36,020 nucleotides of DNA, from the IMG/VR virus record IMGVR_UViG_3300045988_117755, positions 1 to 36,020 of that record; one strand, 5' to 3'. The translations under genes were made by a program, and so were the position numbers. This stretch comes from a virus. The notes under the pieces were generated by a model. That model worked only from the letters and a program-made list of their open reading frames with translations. It was not told the DNA's origin and did not search any database. Below, one piece after another: positions 1 through 36,020 of this stretch (position 1 is its first letter; every line of letters starts with the position of its first letter).

Positions 1-75
1 CCGTTTCTGGGTTTCGGAAACCCCCCGTTTCTGGGTTTCGGAAACCCCCCGTTTCCAGTTGTCGGAAACCTTGGG
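1..75. repeat. Tandem 24-bp direct repeats (unit CCGTTTCTGGGTTTCGGAAACCCC; copies at 1-24 and 25-48, degenerate copy 49-72). Each unit contains the dyad GAAAC-C5-GTTTC. The repeats lie inside a CDS and encode KRGVSETQ peptide repeats; they look like iterons.
   Basis: Direct reading of the sequence; the same unit occurs at 35978-36001 and 36002-36020. Confidence 0.9.
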
Positions 76-3980: not shown

Positions 3981-4444
3981 TGCCCGATCAGGCCGCGCAC
4001 GGCCTCTCCCAAGACCCCGGATCCCATGATTCGGGCGATGTTCGCCTTGGCCTCCTTGTCGAAGCGGCAGGAGATGCCCTTGAAGGCCCCGCCCTTCTTG
4101 TGCTCCACGCGGCACCCGTCCGGGACCTCCCCGGTCTGCTCGAAATTCTCCTTGATGCGGCCCATGTCGACGGACACGGCGGTGTAGCCGTTATCAAGCG
4201 CCCACTGGTAGAAAGCGGCGCGGTCGGTCACGGCGATTTCGTCGGAGGGCTTGGTGGACGTGATCGAGATCGTGCCGACCTTCGCGCCGTCCACCTCTGC
4301 GGTCACCTGCTTGGTGCCCACGTCCTCGTACAGCTGGCGGCACGCGTCGTTTATGTCCGCGCCGAGCAGCTTGTTCTCGTCGCTCAGCACCTTGAGGACG
4401 TGCTTCTGTAGCGCGTAGCGCGCCACGTCATCCTTGAATGCCAT
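3977..4444 (-). CDS. Hypothetical protein of the recombination module, 155 aa (possibly Gp157-like).
   Basis: Position immediately downstream of RecT; family assignment is from weak recall only. Confidence 0.4.
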   Translation of the reverse strand: MAFKDDVARYALQKHVLKVLSDENKLLGADINDACRQLYEDVGTKQVTAEVDGAKVGTISITSTKPSDEIAVTDRAAFYQWALDNGYTAVSVDMGRIKENFEQTGEVPDGCRVEHKKGGAFKGISCRFDKEAKANIARIMGSGVLGEAVRGLIGQ

Positions 4445-8190: not shown

Positions 8191-8300
8191 GCTGGGTAAT
8201 TACGGTTTCTATATTACCCATTTGCCGGTAATGGGCAATACATTTTCCCATATTTGATTGTTTTTTTTCTAGCTGCTGGTAATAACTGGTGCAGGGGACC
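8191..8300 (-). promoter_or_regulatory. Promoter and operator for the HTH gene. Minus-strand -35 TTGCCC, 17-nt spacer, -10 TAATAT. Contains the palindrome GTAATTAC (8198-8205) and a 25-bp near-palindrome TTACCCATT-tgccggt-AATGGGCAA (8213-8241), plus repeated GGTAAT/ATTACC motifs.
   Basis: AT-rich island between the late-operon terminator and the HTH gene; motifs read directly from the sequence. Confidence 0.6.
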
Positions 8301-24798: not shown

Positions 24799-26232
24799 TT
24801 ACTCCACCGCCTGAGCGCCGCCGCCCATGAGCGACAGGATGGCGCGCTGATTCGCGTTCGCGCCCATCTGCTGCACGACCTTCTGCCGCATGTCCTCCCC
24901 GAAGCCAAGCTGCTCCCAGAAGACCTCGGTTGCGGCGAACTCGGGCACGACGGAGGCGATCTTGACCATGGCGTCGGCCTGAGACGCGATGGACGGCATG
25001 AGCGGGTTCTTGAAGTTCGCGGCGATCTGCACGCCGTCGTAAGCGTCGAGCGTCGCGTCGTTGGCGATTGCGAGCGCCATCCTCGCGATGGTCACGAGTG
25101 CCTCTCCGTTGCCCTCGTTGAGGTCGGTGACCTCCATGATGAGCGGCTCGTTCGCCTGCGTGATGGCCTCGGCGCTCGACGGGTTGTCGTGGATGACGCC
25201 GAGCTGAGACACGGGGACGTTCGTCTCGCCGGAAAAACGCGCCGCGAGCGCCCGCATGTAGTCGGTGTGCGGCTGCATGGAGCCTTGGCTGAGCTGGCCG
25301 AACTTCGGCGTGGTGCCGTCCTCGGTCTGCGACACGGTGAAGATGTTCCCGATGTAGGCCTCCCAGCGCGTCTTGTTCGCGAAGGGGTCGGAATCCACGC
25401 CGAGCAGGTACTTCTGCGGACTGGTGAAGAACTCCGCGCTGATCTCCGTTCGCAGCGCCTCTCGCACGCCGCTGTCCGTGATGAAGCGCACGGCGCGGGT
25501 GATGCGCGACTGACCGAGCGGGCACGCCTCGGTGGGGTTGTAGGCCAGCGCCTCCATGAGCGGTCTGCCCATGCGGTGCGCCATGCGCTCCACGGAGAGG
25601 GCGTCGCGCCCGTCGACGTGATAGGTGGCCTCGTCGGTGTAGAGCGCCAGCTCGTCCGGCGCGCCGGAGGCGTCGTAGTGCATGATGACGAGGCCGGACG
25701 AGATGCGCCCGAGGCGCTCGCTCCACTTCGCCGCGCCGTCCTCCGCGCTGTGCGTGACCACGATGACGGACGGCTCGCCAGCCGCGCCCTTTGAGAGGGT
25801 CACGAAGTCGCAGCCGGCTATCAGCTCGCTCTCGCACGCCTGCTTGTACTTGCGCTTGAGGTTGCAGCGGCGCACGAGCTGGTCGACCTGGGATGCCAGT
25901 GCCTCGTCACCCACGGTGAAGCCGTCGAAGCGGCTGCGCGAGGCCATGGCGGACACGGCCTTCTTGGGCCAGCCCACGACGGTCTCGATGTTCCGCAGCG
26001 ACGGCGGGATGGAGATGCCGAGGTCCTTCAGCACGTTCTCGCCGTCGTAGTAGCGGCGGCGGAGCTGGTTCTTCGCGAGGTGGCTCGCCCAGATGGCCAG
26101 CAGCTCGTCCACCTCGTCGGCGATGCCGTACTCGTCTCCGCCGAGCGTCAGAGCCGACACGATCGCGCGGCTGTCGTGCTTCAAGCGATGCGACGGCGGC
26201 GCGCCGCGATGCCATGTGTTCGGTTGCTCCAC
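24799..26232 (-). CDS. Portal protein (SPP1 gp6-like), 477 aa.
   Basis: Size and position after TerL; GTG start overlapping the TerL stop (TAGTG). Confidence 0.7.
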   Translation of the reverse strand: MEQPNTWHRGAPPSHRLKHDSRAIVSALTLGGDEYGIADEVDELLAIWASHLAKNQLRRRYYDGENVLKDLGISIPPSLRNIETVVGWPKKAVSAMASRSRFDGFTVGDEALASQVDQLVRRCNLKRKYKQACESELIAGCDFVTLSKGAAGEPSVIVVTHSAEDGAAKWSERLGRISSGLVIMHYDASGAPDELALYTDEATYHVDGRDALSVERMAHRMGRPLMEALAYNPTEACPLGQSRITRAVRFITDSGVREALRTEISAEFFTSPQKYLLGVDSDPFANKTRWEAYIGNIFTVSQTEDGTTPKFGQLSQGSMQPHTDYMRALAARFSGETNVPVSQLGVIHDNPSSAEAITQANEPLIMEVTDLNEGNGEALVTIARMALAIANDATLDAYDGVQIAANFKNPLMPSIASQADAMVKIASVVPEFAATEVFWEQLGFGEDMRQKVVQQMGANANQRAILSLMGGGAQAVE

Positions 26233-27656
26233 TAGTAGACCACCGCCTTACGTCCGGGTCGTCTCTTCGTCGTCTTGGCCTGCCACAGCGCGAGCGCGCA
26301 GGCCTCTATGAGGGTGGAGTCCGCGCCGCCCGCGTCCTCGAACCCCACGCCGTCGCTGCCGATGCGGCGGCGGGCGGTGAGGGTCGCGGAGGCGGTCAGC
26401 TCGTCCTGCCCGTAGTGCGCGAGGTCGCGCTCGGCAACGGCGTTGGTCAGCATCGACACGGCCTTGGCCATGTCGCGCGGGCCCGCCGTAACCACGGCGC
26501 GCTTGGGGAAGCCCATGTCCGCAAGCCTCGTGGTGAGCGCCGCCGTGCTGCCGCCGTCGATGGCGACGGACGCCACCTTGTCGCGGCGCGCATCCAGCCA
26601 CGCGGCCACCCAGCCCACGCCCTCGGAGAGCGGGCGGGTGTCCACCCACTCGACGTAGGCCGCGCCCTCGGCGGGGCGCAGGCAGTAGGCCAGCGTCGCT
26701 CGGTCGGGGCCGAACTTCACGCCGGCGCATGTGACGCGCGGCTCGGGCGGCTCGTCGGTCTCGCAGAGCGCCCACGCCTTCTCCGAAATGACATGCTCCA
26801 CCGCAGCGGTGGATGCGTCCCACCAGCCCAGGTACTCGCGGGCGAAGCTGTCCGGCTCGCGCACGAGCGACTGCGCCGCCGAGCGCATGGAGCGCTCCTT
26901 GATGCGGTAGCCCATCATCGGGTTGCATTCGTACCAGCGGTCGACGTCGAGCGGGTCGCCGACCTCTTCCGCCGCCCACTCAAGCCACCAGTCCTCGCCC
27001 AGCTCGCCCGCGTGGGCGCGGTCGTGCATGTCGCGGAACACGGTGCCGGGGCACTTGTGGTTCGGCGGCGTTCCGATGTAGATGGTCTGGGGGTCGCCGG
27101 AATCGCCGGCGATCGTGGTGGGCATGAGCGCGTCGCGCTGCTCGGCGGTGAGCTCCTGCGCCTCGTCAACGACGATGACGTCGTACGTCCCGCCGCGCGC
27201 CCCGCTGTTGGTGCGCGTTGAGAACTCGATGGCGTGGCCGTCGGCGAGGTATATGCCCTCCGCGCCCTGCGCCTTGTAGATTCCGCCGTGCGGCTTCAGC
27301 TTGGTGGAGAAGTCGCGGTTGGCGGCGATGAAGTCGCACATGAACTTGAACATCTTGCGGACGGTGCCCGCGTGGTGCGCCGAGTAGAGCACGTCGCGCC
27401 CCTCGATGAACGCCGCCCACAGCGCGTAGTACCGCGCCGCGAAGCTCTTGCCGTTCTGGCGCGGTCGCGACAGGCCGATGTTGATGGCCTCGGCCTCGCC
27501 CAGCTCGTTCTTGGCGAGGTACAGCTCCATCTCGTAGCGCTGAGCCGGGATGAACGTCACGCCGTAGCTCGAGAACAGCTCCACGGCCTCAGCGCCGTCG
27601 CTGCGGTCGTACGCGCCGACGCGTTCGAAGGTCGGCTCCTGCCGCCCGCGCCTCAC
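26232..27656 (-). CDS. terL: Terminase large subunit.
   Basis: Walker A GLSRPRQNGKS and Walker B DVIVVDEAQE; C-terminal nuclease-like domain; size 474 aa. Confidence 0.85.
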   Translation of the reverse strand: MRRGRQEPTFERVGAYDRSDGAEAVELFSSYGVTFIPAQRYEMELYLAKNELGEAEAINIGLSRPRQNGKSFAARYYALWAAFIEGRDVLYSAHHAGTVRKMFKFMCDFIAANRDFSTKLKPHGGIYKAQGAEGIYLADGHAIEFSTRTNSGARGGTYDVIVVDEAQELTAEQRDALMPTTIAGDSGDPQTIYIGTPPNHKCPGTVFRDMHDRAHAGELGEDWWLEWAAEEVGDPLDVDRWYECNPMMGYRIKERSMRSAAQSLVREPDSFAREYLGWWDASTAAVEHVISEKAWALCETDEPPEPRVTCAGVKFGPDRATLAYCLRPAEGAAYVEWVDTRPLSEGVGWVAAWLDARRDKVASVAIDGGSTAALTTRLADMGFPKRAVVTAGPRDMAKAVSMLTNAVAERDLAHYGQDELTASATLTARRRIGSDGVGFEDAGGADSTLIEACALALWQAKTTKRRPGRKAVVY

Positions 27657-27868
27657 GAACGGCGCTTCCGGGCGGCCTCCACCGGGTCGGCCTCGGCCTC
27701 GGGGTCGGGCAGCGCGTCTATCTCCGCCATGACCTCCATGAGGCGCTTCGACAGCGCGGCGATGTCGCGGGCGCTGTCCTTGGCGTCGATGGTCTCGGCC
27801 ACGGCGTCGCGCAGTGCGACGAGCGCGGCGCGGCGGTCGCCGGTGCGCACGGCTTCGAGCACGGTCAT
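27653..27868 (-). CDS. Putative terminase small subunit / DNA-binding protein, 71 aa.
   Basis: Small helical protein immediately upstream of TerL with GGAGGT RBS. Start ATG 27868; the upstream part of the track ORF is rejected. Confidence 0.4.
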   Translation of the reverse strand: MTVLEAVRTGDRRAALVALRDAVAETIDAKDSARDIAALSKRLMEVMAEIDALPDPEAEADPVEAARKRRS

Positions 27869-28009
27869 GTGGGTACCTCCACGTCTTCTGCCTGTGGAAA
27901 CGGGAAAGGCCGCGCTCGGCGGCCTGTGGAATCGGAGTCCCCCTGTTTTCTTGCTATGCCGCCGGGGTACGGAGCGACCACACGGTAGGGGATGCCCCCC
28001 CACGGCCTC

Positions 28010-28462
28010 TCAGAGCGCACCAGAGCGCCGTTTGGGATGGCGCACGGGTACTTGGGCCGACTTGCCCTTTAGGCCCCGTGAAACGGCCCTCGCGGCCTCG
28101 CAGAACGCGAGCGCGGACGGCCACGGGCCGAAGCGTCGGCGAACCTCGGCGCGGACGGACTCGACGGCCGCCATGCTTCGGTCGCTCCTCCACTGGTTGC
28201 AGCAGCGGTGCGCCGGGAGGCAGTTGGCGAGCGACGCCGGGTCTCCGCCCTTGGAGACTGGCACGACCTCGTCGAGCTCGTACGACAGCGGGTGCCGCGC
28301 GGGCAGCGAGTAATCGATGGGCAGGCCGCATATGTGGCACGGCATGCCCATCGCCTTGACGCGCTTCCAGAGGACGTCGCGCTTATAGCTGCGACGGGGA
28401 TTTCGTTGTGGCAACTCGCTGCCCTCCACGGCGTGATGGGAGAAGCACGAAGGCCCCGGCAT
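28010..28462 (-). CDS. HNH endonuclease (terminase-associated).
   Basis: ...WKRVKAMGMPCHICGLPID...H...DE.VPVSKGG...NCLPAHRCCN. Start is ambiguous: ATG at 28462, 28516 or 28351. Confidence 0.7.
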   Translation of the reverse strand: MPGPSCFSHHAVEGSELPQRNPRRSYKRDVLWKRVKAMGMPCHICGLPIDYSLPARHPLSYELDEVVPVSKGGDPASLANCLPAHRCCNQWRSDRSMAAVESVRAEVRRRFGPWPSALAFCEAARAVSRGLKGKSAQVPVRHPKRRSGAL

Positions 28463-28555
28463 ATCCGGGGCCCGCGTTCGTGATGGCGCGTGCGCGTGGA
28501 GGTGGCGTCCGCGCATCGCGCTGACCTTACTATGGCACAGATCGCGCCGCAAATG

Positions 28556-28605
28556 GGTGGTAATAGGTGGTAACTGGTGGTAACGGGTGGTAAAAGGTGG
28601 TAATC
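28556..28605. repeat. Five perfect tandem 10-bp direct repeats GGTGGTAANN (…AATA, AACT, AACG, AAAA, AATC), one copy per helical turn.
   Basis: Read directly; lies between the upstream terminator and the HNH/terminase genes. Confidence 0.9.
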
Positions 28606-28625
28606 GGGAGCCGAATCGCGGCATG

Positions 28626-28660
28626 AGAAAAGCCCCCTGCGGCGAACCGCAGAGGGCGCA
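28626..28660 (-). terminator. Intrinsic terminator after the XRE gene: 11-bp stem, UUCG tetraloop, then UUUUCUC.
   Basis: Hand-folded: GCCCUCUGCGG-UUCG-CCGCAGGGGGC then a U tract. Confidence 0.75.
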
Positions 28661-28662
28661 GA

Positions 28663-29079
28663 TCATATCTCGCCGTCGTATATGCGCTCCTCTTCTGGGT
28701 AGCTGAACGACACGCGGTACCCCATCGCCACCAGCCTCTCGGCGGTCGAGCGCGTCACCGCGTTGAGGAGGCCGTACGGCCCTGCCTGCTCCGGGTAGGC
28801 CTCGGCATCGGCCTGATCCTGCGTCCGGTAGTAGGTCAAGCACGCCTCGCCGTCGGCCGGGAGCGCCGCGAGTAGACGGCCAAGGTTCTCGGCCACTCCG
28901 GCATCGTGCTCCTCGACGCACCCCATGAGCCACTCCATGGCGTCGCCGGGGATGGGCGTCTCGCCCTTCTCCCACCGCTTCACGGTGAGCGCGCGCACCC
29001 CGAGCGCGTCGGCGGCCTGCTGCTGCGTCACCCCGCACAGCTCCCGGAGAGCGCGGAAGTTCGCCGTCGTTTTAGCCAT
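28663..29079 (-). CDS. XRE-family HTH DNA-binding protein with a C-terminal domain, 138 aa; last gene of a three-gene mini-operon.
   Basis: ...LRELCGVTQQQAADALGVRALTVKRWEKGE... is an HTH; GGAGG RBS; TAG-ATG coupling to the upstream gene. Confidence 0.75.
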   Translation of the reverse strand: MAKTTANFRALRELCGVTQQQAADALGVRALTVKRWEKGETPIPGDAMEWLMGCVEEHDAGVAENLGRLLAALPADGEACLTYYRTQDQADAEAYPEQAGPYGLLNAVTRSTAERLVAMGYRVSFSYPEEERIYDGEI

Positions 29080-29436
29080 CTACGCCTCCGATGCCGTGCG
29101 CGTGCAGCGCAGCATCTCGTCCTTGCCGACGGTTGCCACGACGGTCTGGCGGCTCTTGCCGGTCTGCACGCGATATACATCGCCGAACGCTGAACCTTTG
29201 ATCTTCGTGAACCAGAAGACGCGCCCGACGGCGGTTCCTCCCATGAACGAGCTATCGACCACGATGCGCTGCCCCGGCATGCCGTCCCTGCGGAATCGCT
29301 CGAACGCCTTGGAGCGCTCTGCTTCGCGTCCGGCCGCGTACGCCTCCATCGCGGCCTCGTACTCCTCATCCGACAGGATGCGTCCGGGCGCGTATCCGGC
29401 CTTGCGGAGGACTGATCTGGAGGTGACGATCTTCAT
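29080..29436 (-). CDS. Hypothetical protein, 118 aa.
   Basis: ATG 29436 with purine-rich RBS; the upstream 28 aa of the track ORF are rejected. Confidence 0.5.
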   Translation of the reverse strand: MKIVTSRSVLRKAGYAPGRILSDEEYEAAMEAYAAGREAERSKAFERFRRDGMPGQRIVVDSSFMGGTAVGRVFWFTKIKGSAFGDVYRVQTGKSRQTVVATVGKDEMLRCTRTASEA

Positions 29437-29452
29437 CTCTCTCCCCTTTCCC

Positions 29453-29707
29453 TTAGCAGTTGGCGGCGAAGTTGTCGAGCGATGCCTGGGCGGTCGCGAG
29501 GTCGCCCGCGAAGACTGCATCCACCGCGTTGCGGATGGCGTAGGCGAGCTTCTCGACGACCGCGAGGCTGCTGGTGCTTGAGACGAACGCTCCGCCGGCG
29601 TAATCGTACATGGCGCTGATCGCGGACTTCTCCATGCTCAGGGTGCCGCGCTTGACGTTGCTGTAGATGACGCCCGCCTGCTTGCGGCTGTAGGTCTTGA
29701 CTTCCAT
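29453..29707 (-). CDS. Hypothetical protein, 84 aa; first gene of the mini-operon.
   Basis: AAGGGGG RBS 7 nt upstream of ATG 29707. Confidence 0.5.
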   Translation of the reverse strand: MEVKTYSRKQAGVIYSNVKRGTLSMEKSAISAMYDYAGGAFVSSTSSLAVVEKLAYAIRNAVDAVFAGDLATAQASLDNFAANC

Positions 29708-29744
29708 CGTACGCCCCCTTGGCTCGGTGTCCCGGAAGCCCTGC

Positions 29745-29790
29745 GCTTCCTTTTGACAACTTCATTATATGATACTTTTGGTATCAGCGC
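29745..29790 (-). promoter_or_regulatory. Promoter of the mini-operon: perfect -10 TATAAT on the minus strand (plus 29764-29769), flanked by the inverted repeat TGATAC-N5-GTATCA (29770-29786) and direct CTTTTG repeats.
   Basis: AT-rich island; motifs read directly. Confidence 0.5.
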
Positions 29791-29925
29791 ACTGGTAAAG
29801 CAGGCTTCTCCACGAACGGCACATATTCGGCGGCGAACGGCTCGGCATGGAAAAAGCCCCCGGCGACGCATCGCCGAGGGCCACCGGTCGGCCGAAGCCT
29901 TCCCGGGCAATCCGATGAGAGCATA

Positions 29926-30402
29926 TCAGAACAGCGCCGCCTGCCCGCATCCTTCTCGCGCGGCGGCGATGCCCACCATGTCGACCCAGTCCAGCGCGGC
30001 GTACGCGGCGCGGCGCACGGCCTCCCCGGTGCAGCCGAGGTAGCGGCCTATCTCCGCCCATCCCATGAGCTCGACGTAGTGCAGCTCGATGGCATCGCCC
30101 CACAGCGGGTGCGAGGGGTTCGCCGCGCGGATTCCACGGCACACGGCGCGGGCGTCCTCCACCTCGCGCTCCAGCGCGCCGAGCTCCGCCCGGATGCGCG
30201 ACTCGGCGTCGATGCGCTCGTCCGTGGCGCGCGTGGGGTCCGATGCGCCAGTCCCGCGCCCTATGGCCTCGTACGTCTGGCCCCTCACGCCCTCGCGGGC
30301 GCGCATGGACCTCAGCGCCGTGAGCCTGCCGTCTATGAGGCGCTGCGCGGCCCGCGCCGCCTCGAAGTACTCGCGTGAAGTTATCTCTACCACCTCCGGC
30401 AT
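29926..30402 (-). CDS. Putative late-gene transcriptional activator (ArpU/RinA-like, sigma-70 region-4-like HTH), 158 aa.
   Basis: C-terminal ...ELHYVELMGWAEIGRYLGCTGEAVRRAAYAALDWV resembles sigma region 4; located upstream of the packaging genes. Confidence 0.45.
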   Translation of the reverse strand: MPEVVEITSREYFEAARAAQRLIDGRLTALRSMRAREGVRGQTYEAIGRGTGASDPTRATDERIDAESRIRAELGALEREVEDARAVCRGIRAANPSHPLWGDAIELHYVELMGWAEIGRYLGCTGEAVRRAAYAALDWVDMVGIAAAREGCGQAALF

Positions 30403-35585: not shown

Positions 35586-36020
35586 GGCTCCTCCCCGAAT
35601 TTTTCGCGGTACTCGCGCTCCAGGCGCTCAAGCTCCTCGTCCGGGTCGACGGCGTTGACGGGCTTGGGTATCGGCTTGGGAGCGTCGGATGCGGAGAACG
35701 CGGGCATGTTGCGCTTCCAGTTGCGCATGGCCGCGTTCCAGTCCCGCATGGGGGCCTTGCCCGAGACCTTCCACCCGTTCGCGGTGAAGTGGTCGAAGAA
35801 TTTCTCCGATTCACCGCGCGGCATCTTGATGGAATCGCCGAACTCGATGCACTCCTCGCGCGTGGGCGGGGAAAAGCGCTTGCGCTTTTCCCTCACACCC
35901 TCTGTATTGGATTGGTTTGTATTGGCTTGTATTGTATTGTATTGGGTTTCCGTTTTTCCCGAATCTTCGGAAACCCCCCGTTTCTGGGTTTCGGAAACCC
36001 CCCGTTTCTGGGTTTCGGAA
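35582..36020 (-). CDS. C-terminal part of the same junction-spanning gene. It ends ...KFFDHFTANGWKVSGKAPMRDWNAAMRNWKRN..., a motif resembling the conserved C-terminus of Gram-positive phage replication-initiator / DnaD-like organiser proteins.
   Basis: There is no stop and no start codon between 35896 and the window end in this frame. The GWKV-GK-PM-DW-AA-RNW motif is recalled from phage replication proteins. ATGA overlap with the downstream gene at 35582-35585. Confidence 0.5.
   Translation of the reverse strand, partial: SETQKRGVSETQKRGVSEDSGKTETQYNTIQANTNQSNTEGVREKRKRFSPPTREECIEFGDSIKMPRGESEKFFDHFTANGWKVSGKAPMRDWNAAMRNWKRNMPAFSASDAPKPIPKPVNAVDPDEELERLEREYREKFGEEP
35902..35945. repeat. AT-rich tract of about six degenerate GTATTG(G) tandem repeats (tgtattgg attgg tttgtattgg cttgtattg tattg tattggg) next to the iterons. 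It is a candidate DNA-unwinding element and encodes a low-complexity T/Q/N linker.
   Basis: Direct reading; local GC is far below the genome average. Confidence 0.7.
35954..36020. repeat. Same 24-bp iteron-like units at the window end; 35978-36020 is identical to 1-43 (terminal redundancy or circular junction).
   Basis: Exact 43-nt identity between the two window termini, seen directly. Confidence 0.9.

Follow-up and report, generated by a model that had tools for sequence, protein, structure and literature searches.

The window analyzed here is a stretch of viral DNA 36,020 nucleotides (nt) in length (IMG/VR record IMGVR_UViG_3300045988_117755, positions 1 to 36,020), and the element in question is an array of five 10-base-pair (bp) direct repeats at positions 28556 to 28605. 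Our analysis indicates that this array very probably provides the docking sites of a phage late regulator, a protein resembling region 4 of sigma factors, at the promoter of the packaging and head genes, rather than a packaging signal. On the plus strand, the array reads GGTGGTAATA GGTGGTAACT GGTGGTAACG GGTGGTAAAA GGTGGTAATC, i.e., five copies of the exact octamer GGTGGTAA, each followed by two variable bases. Tandem Repeats Finder (TRF) returned a period of 10 with 5.3 copies, and the exact octamer was observed 6 times in the window compared to 0.24 times expected, with a count that never exceeded 1 in 100 shuffles of the window. The description of five perfect tandem 10-bp repeats in the first-pass annotation is thus exact, according to the sequence itself, TRF, and the shuffles. 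The 8-bp cores are invariant in 5 of 5 units while all five 2-bp spacers differ, which argues that the cores are under selection and that the units are not recent duplicates. Because third-position GC content places essentially all genes of the window on the minus strand, the array is to be read in the sense of transcription as five units of the form nnTTACCACC (TTACCACCNN five times) at an exact 10-bp spacing. The units lie in one orientation only, within GC-rich surroundings (local GC approximately 0.68). As the first-pass annotation had placed it, the array sits between the intrinsic terminator of a mini-operon, found by a terminator scan at positions 28657 to 28632, and the genes for an HNH endonuclease and the small (TerS) and large (TerL) terminase subunits; it is located approximately 150 bp upstream of the HNH-TerS-TerL cluster, and the end of an XRE-type gene lies 58 bp upstream of it. 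Along the direction of transcription, the order is regulator gene, terminator, inserted cassette, terminator, array, TTGCGG-17-TAAGGT, hairpin, HNH gene, spacer, TerS, TerL, and portal.

Searches with TerL led to prophages of Coriobacteriia and to gut viral contigs (Collinsella sp. An7, C. tanakaei, and Olsenella and Thermophilibacter metagenome-assembled genomes); a blastn search of a 4.3-kb region against 50,697 phage records returned only three short matches of 2 to 4% coverage. Genomic contexts were compared for several classes of helix-turn-helix (HTH) domain, together with an independent sample of 39 viral contigs obtained through the regulator; individual loci are designated by L and a number. 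At least 14 nonredundant relatives and 35 of the 39 contigs share one layout, in which a gene for a sigma-4-like protein is followed by a terminator, 2 to 14 units phased at 10 bp, a TAnnGT element, a leader hairpin, and the packaging genes. The arrays of the relatives begin 45 to 105 bp past the stop codon of the regulator gene, and in relatives without an insertion (L023 and L009) the terminator of this gene directly precedes the array. For example, L009 (the same as L011; TerL 94% identical) has six 10-bp units with the core ATAGACA straight after the regulator gene and its terminator, with no cassette between them. Further cores among the relatives are TGAGCAC in two to three copies, CGGnACC in four, and ATGTCACT and AACACACC in two each. 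The same layout with different cores indicates that the architecture is conserved and the sequence is not; as to the proposed check for conservation of the array in related phages, the layout held, while the core differs by lineage. The loci L037 and L038, where the regulator gene lies at the edge of a degraded prophage without a late operon, are uninformative.

Comparison of the arrays with the proteins encoded around them revealed which protein the repeat follows. Six classes of recognition helix map onto six cores in this computational comparison. The helix G(E/G)xxR(R/K)AxYAAL accompanies the core TACCA(C/G) in the window, L023, L026, L032, and L033, including a regulator 99% identical to that of the window (L023, with imperfect units and the same core) and one 72% identical (L026). 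The helix GSGxRQAxxxAL accompanies AGAC(A/G) in L009, L035, and L041; SERQAHADHxAAL goes with CTGCAG, SVRSVHSDMSSAL with TTGCAGAC (6 to 14 units, the copy number differing among contigs), SERQAQxDxSxAL with T(T/G)CGC, and SESYAKLCCSAAL with TAGTACGGA. Between L039 and L040, identity is 96% for HNH, 97% for TerS, 93% for TerL, and 88% for leader DNA, and within the regulator it amounts to 89.5% in the N-terminal part and 83% in the C-terminal tail as opposed to 55% in the HTH; their arrays are 47% identical, with unrelated cores. Conversely, L039 and L042 have the same helix and the same core, yet their TerS proteins are merely 67% identical, and helix-matching cores were also found with another TerS family (Terminase_4 in L026 and L033) and with other packaging modules (L035 and L041). 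This double dissociation argues that the repeat goes with the sigma-4-like protein instead of the terminase; as read from these sequences, the repeat core tracks the recognition helix of the regulator, not TerS, HNH, or TerL. Since the HTH and the array are both variable and the conserved C-terminal tail lies between them, simple linkage does not explain their coupling.

Two observations concern the arrays of particular relatives. In the commonest lineage (L058 to L083), the TTGCAGAC array, located approximately 74 to 83 bp past the regulator stop codon, ranges from 6 to about 14 units in contigs that are otherwise near-identical, so its copy number changes fast, probably by slippage or unequal recombination. 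In L042, a second 10-bp-phased array with the core GTTATCGAGA in three to four copies (positions 4084 to 4123) lies just upstream of the TGCAG array, and it may either be left over from another specificity or serve as the site of a second protein.

The position of the array relative to candidate promoter elements was compared in six loci anchored on a conserved GTCAGCG. In 5 of the 6 loci, exactly 30 nt separate this anchor from the end of the last good unit upstream of it, while in L035 a degenerate unit fills one more turn; at a fixed place in all six, TA(A/T/C)(G/T/A)GT follows 17 nt after a -35-like TTGCGG or TTGCCA. In the window, the -35-like hexamer is TTGCGG at positions 28547 to 28552 of the minus strand (L026 has TTGCCA there), inside a sixth, degenerate unit position (CATTTGCGGC, 28555 to 28546), and the candidate -10 element is TAAGGT at positions 28524 to 28529 of the same strand, followed by the conserved CAGCGCGATGCGCGG. 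The distance of TAnnGT to the last unit is fixed in all lineages, and in other lineages it is the proximal unit that takes the place of the -35 element, 17 nt before TAnnGT. The five units of the window would accordingly be placed at approximately -88 to -39 relative to the predicted start site. Another candidate, TGCCATAGT or TGATAT as an extended -10 element, was dropped in favor of TAnnGT, the sole element whose distance stays constant in every lineage. Among the options raised in the first-pass annotation, an activator array is the one favored here, both by this fixed register with a promoter-like element and by the co-variation of the core with the helix of the upstream regulator. It was also observed that several cores (TTACCA, TAGACA, and TTGCAG) resemble the -35 consensus TTGACA, a likeness that would be in keeping with a sigma-4-like reader.

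We propose the following scheme. The regulator would be made from an early or middle transcript, and several copies of it would bind the five TTACCACC units head-to-tail, one per helical turn and hence on one face of the DNA, where a long N-terminal helical hairpin may hold the bound copies together. The resulting assembly, at approximately -88 to -39, would turn on the weak adjacent promoter TTGCGG-17-TAAGGT, which in turn would drive HNH, TerS, TerL, portal, and the remaining late operon. The most likely means would be the recruitment or stabilization of the host RNA polymerase, although assistance in its passage through leader hairpins is also possible.

The regulator is a 158-amino-acid (aa) protein encoded at positions 29926 to 30402 on the minus strand ("SigL," Ltr-like), assigned as sigma-region-4-like from Pfam, PHROG, and an AlphaFold (AF2) model. 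This model (predicted local distance difference test score of 88) comprises a long N-terminal two-helix hairpin and a C-terminal HTH domain with the recognition helix GEAVRRAAYAAL. When the C-terminal domain was compared to the PDB with Foldseek, the top fold matches, none of which reached significance, were to sigma region 4 domains, and a sequence-profile search of the PDB with the regulator returned only SigF region 4 (E = 0.39). Homologues numbered 137, with C-terminal HTHs that fall into discrete classes, and Sigma70_r4_2 was matched by 11 of 50 of the homologues. The best PHROG match was phrog_79 (E = 1.2e-7), labeled "anti-termination protein Q-like," followed by phrog_36 (E = 7e-4), which is also matched by the characterized LtrA of staphylococcal phage 37 (6e-19) and by relatives of the window protein with values down to 5e-9. 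LtrA (Sigma70_r4) belongs to the Ltr superfamily of late regulators of Gram-positive phages, together with RinA, ArpU, LtrB (DUF1492), and LtrC, whose genes are located just upstream of terS (Quiles-Puchalt et al. 2013, PMC3753634). The regulator gene of the window is followed by an intrinsic terminator, read from the sequence at positions 29851 to 29883 on the minus strand (GGCCCTCGGCGATGCGTCGCCGGGGGC and TTTTT).

Several results weigh against the assignment of the array to this regulator and its promoter. A generic promoter scan called no sigma-70 promoter at the array, and the promoter elements proposed above are inferred at the level of consensus. Among the 39 sampled contigs, two (L063 and L082) have no array. 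Since the regulator gene neighbors the array, part of the co-variation could come from co-inheritance. The protein itself is distant from characterized families: its Pfam match to Sigma70_r4_2 is weak and below threshold, NCBIfam returned zero matches, tblastn with the regulator in 50,697 cultured phages returned zero matches, the phrog_36 match is weak, and in hhalign against phage 37 LtrA the HTH alone was aligned, with a probability of 2.5%. Homology to the characterized Ltr families is thus weakly supported. In addition, the published start site of RinA lies more than 155 bp from its binding region (Ferrer et al. 2011, PMC3152322).

A site of small-terminase recognition (pac or cosB), at which packaging would start, had also been suggested for the array. 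Phased direct repeats in the neighborhood of terminase genes are a usual feature of TerS sites, e.g., lambda cosB and SPP1 pac, and the repeats here lie close upstream of HNH-TerS-TerL. We consider this reading very unlikely. The core does not follow TerS, as the L039-L040 pair demonstrates; the TACCA core is found with a phrog_1459-type TerS in the window and with Terminase_4 in L026 and L033; and the array stands in a fixed register to a -10-like element. Moreover, a separate noncoding spacer of approximately 140 nt between the HNH and TerS genes (27869 to 28009, minus strand), delimited by third-position GC, conservation, and contig starts, shows conservation alongside TerS in phages with completely different arrays (alignment A2). 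The blocks conserved within it comprise GGGGGGCAYCCCC and CCCGsGGGCATAGC..AAAACAG as well as two TTCCACAG boxes (27931 to 27924 and 27899 to 27892) around a hairpin and T-run. The contigs L007, L019, L084, and L086, four independent ones, share their starting point, a homologous base 24 nt upstream of TTCCACA; in the window, the homologous position falls between 27956 and 27955 (..GGCAT|AGCAAG..), 24 nt before the first TTCCACAG box, which puts the predicted genome ends approximately 600 bp from the array. Contigs L050 and L054 end 40 to 100 nt past their own HNH genes, as anticipated for an HNH-cos-TerS order, and in mycobacteriophage MacnCheese, the nearest cultured HNH relative, no gene follows HNH before the genome end. 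Hence, the suggestion of a packaging start at the array was not borne out, and the HNH-TerS spacer is probably a cos site with TerS-binding boxes, as judged from its conservation and the contig ends.

The same region contains the first genes of the late operon, all on the minus strand. The HNH endonuclease gene, the first late gene (28010 to 28414), gave a weak Pfam HNH match and a phrog_338 match (E = 3e-23), and its start is likely the TTG at 28414, after GGAGGG. The 116-aa open reading frame (ORF) annotated as TerS is too long: third-position GC is 0.60 in its first 45 codons versus 0.93 in the rest, and the TerS family match is confined to residues 43 to 107. TerS is therefore described here as a 71-aa protein starting at ATG 27868 (27653 to 27868), and it is this part only that matches phrog_1459 (E = 7e-15); a variable DNA-binding domain made of aa 1 to 45 of the longer ORF was considered and rejected, as codon-position GC shows this part to be noncoding. 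TerL is encoded at positions 26232 to 27656 (Pfam Terminase_6N), with relatives 61 to 94% identical. Some relatives have an extra gene for a 253- to 419-aa HNH_5/HTH protein between HNH and TerS, and these share a conserved segment: TTGACC-17-TAAAAT comes first, and behind it lies a structured stretch with pairing between GGTGGTAG and CTACCACC (L023, 5170 to 5320; L031, 6300 to 6470; L032, 4700 to 4870); the segment may represent a mobile (homing-endonuclease) insertion that has a promoter or RNA structure of its own. In L007, approximately 1.7 kb (286 to 1961) separates TerS and TerL, which normally overlap, and includes an ORF that by eye only resembles an N6-adenine methyltransferase.

At both ends of the window (1 to 70 and 35966 to 36020), we observed the same 24-bp tandem repeat, CCGTTTCTGGGTTTCGGAAACCCC, which contains the palindrome GGGTTTC/GAAACCC. 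The window probably represents a complete 36-kb phage genome whose assembly is circularly closed or terminally redundant. Beside this repeat, upstream of the early genes, lies a simple repeat of TGTAT or TGTATTGGATTGGAT with a period of 5 or 15 (35903 to 35945).

The late leader bears on how the regulator would act. A GC-rich hairpin, GGGCCCCGG-AUAUG-CCGGGGCCU, lies between the promoter and the HNH gene at positions 28451 to 28473 of the minus strand (folding z-score of approximately -3). The same protein could use the same sites as a processive antiterminator like lambda Q, loaded at the late promoter array, so that the RNA polymerase, once modified, would pass both the leader hairpin or terminator and the HNH-TerS terminator. 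Such a Q-like role is suggested by the label of phrog_79, by the strong GC hairpin present between promoter and first late gene in nearly all relatives, which is a canonical hairpin with T-run in L009 (5178 to 5207), L013 (6031 to 6056), L014, L041, and L042, by the second hairpin and T-run between HNH and TerS, and by the regulator gene being directly upstream of the late promoter, as with Q. We nevertheless regard it as unlikely. The leader hairpin of the window lacks a U-run and was not called by the terminator scan, in L039 and L040 no terminator is obvious in the leader, and neither Pfam nor NCBIfam gave a match to the Q families, the PHROG name being merely a label. Furthermore, the array lies upstream of the -35 element, as activator sites do, whereas the Q-binding element of lambda is found between -35 and -10. 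Finally, characterized Ltr proteins are described as activators (PMC3753634). An extended version of this idea, for which we would give a similarly low estimate, holds that the late operon is silenced by the leader and HNH-TerS terminators, that sigma-4-like Ltr proteins are promoter-loaded antiterminators, and that the array is their loading platform. If true, it would link the late-activator superfamily of Gram-positive phages mechanistically to Q and could explain the binding of RinA far from its mapped start site. As a separate observation, the GC hairpins of the late leader and of the HNH-TerS spacer (27907 to 27924, minus strand) are followed by T-runs in many relatives, a hint of terminators at the 5' end of the late operon and of read-through control. 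A scan of positions 27600 to 30000 with Rfam gave nothing meaningful, the sole match being Spot_42 (E = 0.86).

Returning to activation by the sigma-4-like regulator, we considered other proteins that could bind the array. The first-pass annotation had suggested a recognition code shared by the phage's HTH regulators, in which the XRE/Aca2-like protein or the Cro-like repressor would bind the repeats. The XRE-type gene does end only 58 bp away, and isolated strong units lie near the early promoter (8284 to 8275) and at the -35 element of the mini-operon (29800 to 29791). Against this, L023 and L033 lack the mini-operon yet have a TACCA array, and retention of the array in such relatives argues against the XRE protein as the binder; the mini-operon promoter has a palindrome of its own, and the operator at the early, Cro-type promoter is an inverted repeat of a different sequence. 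A shared code of this kind therefore seems to us extremely improbable.

The related claim of further copies of a GGTAAT-type motif at other regulatory sites held in part. A weight matrix for which only the arrays of relatives were used identified strong single units at 8284 to 8275 (TATTACCAGC) and 29800 to 29791 (CTTTACCAGT), both on the coding (minus) strand and in promoter regions, and two further strong units on the plus strand; at a threshold of at least 13 bits there were 3 sites, compared to 0.6 ± 0.7 in shuffles. Two of the four cited examples are these strong units, while the other two (GGGTAATTACGG and TTACCCATT..AATGGGCAA) form the inverted repeat at the early promoter and are unrelated to the array unit. 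Nor is the octamer with up to one mismatch enriched outside the array (12 other sites versus approximately 9.8 expected in total). The two outlying units, one upstream of the early cro-like promoter and the other at the -35 element of the cassette promoter, score as high as array units, and they may be secondary (weak) sites of the late regulator, chance matches, or an effect of AT-rich intergenic composition.

The mini-operon, or moron, lies outside the late switch. It spans positions 28663 to 29798 on the minus strand and comprises three genes under their own promoter, TTACCA-18-TATCAT (29798 to 29769), with the palindrome TGATACcaaaaGTATCA (TGATAC-N5-GTATCA) over the -10 element; its last gene encodes a 138-aa HTH_3/Aca2-like protein (28663 to 29079), and its intrinsic terminator (28632 to 28657, minus strand) lies directly upstream of the array. 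L023, L009, and L033 lack the moron, and other cassettes take its place in L026 and L039. The gap between regulator terminator and array was observed to be an insertion hot spot (window, 28663 to 29798, minus strand; L026, 4586 to 5440; L039, 4041 to 4713; L032, 2946 to 4017), each cassette having its own promoter and end terminator. The cassettes of the window and L032 contain two small ORFs and an HTH_3/Aca2-like protein gene, with TGATAC-N5-GTATCA spanning the -10 element, which looks like an acr-aca-type layout; that of L039 encodes a HicA-like toxin and an HTH_17 protein, that of L026 contains two unknown genes, and L042 apparently retains only the fused ends of the L039 cassette.

Iterons of a replication origin had been named as a further option. 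In its favor, the same octamer occurs, phased at 10 bp, in an origin-like cluster of unrelated viral contigs of 50% GC (L001 to L006). However, the units of the window are unidirectional, no AT-rich unwinding region is present in the GC-rich surroundings, the neighbors are the late regulator and packaging genes with no replication genes nearby, and the core co-varies with the sigma-4-like HTH. We therefore hold an origin function of the array to be exceedingly improbable. The contigs L001 to L006 were the only ones found in a search of viral contigs with the array pattern, and they were set aside as a coincidence of sequence, not homology. They are of note in themselves: GGTGGTAA is found there in three 10-bp-phased copies, with inverted copies, around an AT-rich spacer (L005, 7164 to 7400), between ORFs of 519 and 733 aa that by eye only are helicase-like and primase-like, and the cluster looks like a replication origin.

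Altogether, the analysis assigns a probable function to a conspicuous repeat and identifies a likely late-gene switch for uncultured gut phages of Coriobacteriia (Collinsella/Olsenella). At least six helix classes, each with its own 8-bp core, constitute a data set for a recognition code of sigma-region-4-type proteins, and matched pairs could yield orthogonal activator/promoter parts for high-GC Gram-positive hosts. The late promoter is set apart from the packaging signal, and a position of the genome ends is predicted. As systems of this kind are already known, general interest is modest.

Head-to-tail repeats at about one helical turn that abut or replace a weak -35 element are known from class II activators such as PhoB/OmpR and the Streptomyces SARPs. 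The likeness is one of analogy only, since these are host winged-helix proteins with an 11-bp period and not sigma-4-like phage proteins. With lambda Q and its pR', Q-binding element, and tR', the system has in common a regulator gene directly upstream of a single late promoter, a site at that promoter, a terminator-like leader hairpin, and the PHROG label, but it differs in its multicopy array upstream of the -35 element and in giving no match to Q families in Pfam or NCBIfam. For the Alt activator of lactococcal phage TP901-1, the sites upstream of the late (terS) promoter are four imperfect direct repeats that span -76 to -32 (cited in PMC3152322 and PMC13123087), a span similar to the -88 to -39 predicted here, whereas Alt is described as an unrelated protein family of narrow distribution (PMC3753634).

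The closest counterpart is the Ltr superfamily. In these phages, the intergenic region contains the terminator of the regulator gene and the terS promoter, and two to four direct repeats right after the gene are needed for activation, are bound in electrophoretic mobility shift assays, and are matched to the protein's C-terminal part (PMC3753634); those of Phi13 Ltr lie at -107 to -42 (PMC13123087; PMC3152322). Likewise, the regulator gene of the window lies just upstream of the packaging module, where the early/replication region ends; the terminators at 29883 to 29851 and 28657 to 28632 are followed by the predicted late promoter; five direct repeats lie just distal to the regulator gene; and specificity appears to reside in the C-terminal domain, Ltr cognate pairs not cross-reacting and the helix and core co-varying here. 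The window regulator likewise resembles sigma region 4, and phrog_36 is matched both by it, weakly, and by phage 37 LtrA. The differences are that the hosts are high-GC Coriobacteriia rather than Firmicutes, that the repeats here are 8-bp cores with a strict 10-bp period in 2 to 14 copies as opposed to the published two to four repeats of 7 nt (18 bp in Phi13), and that a structured, often terminator-like leader follows the promoter, with HNH rather than terS as the first late gene. At the level of function, these four architectural criteria, i.e., gene position, terminators and promoter, distal repeats, and C-terminal specificity, support the system as a high-GC example of the known Ltr-type late switch.

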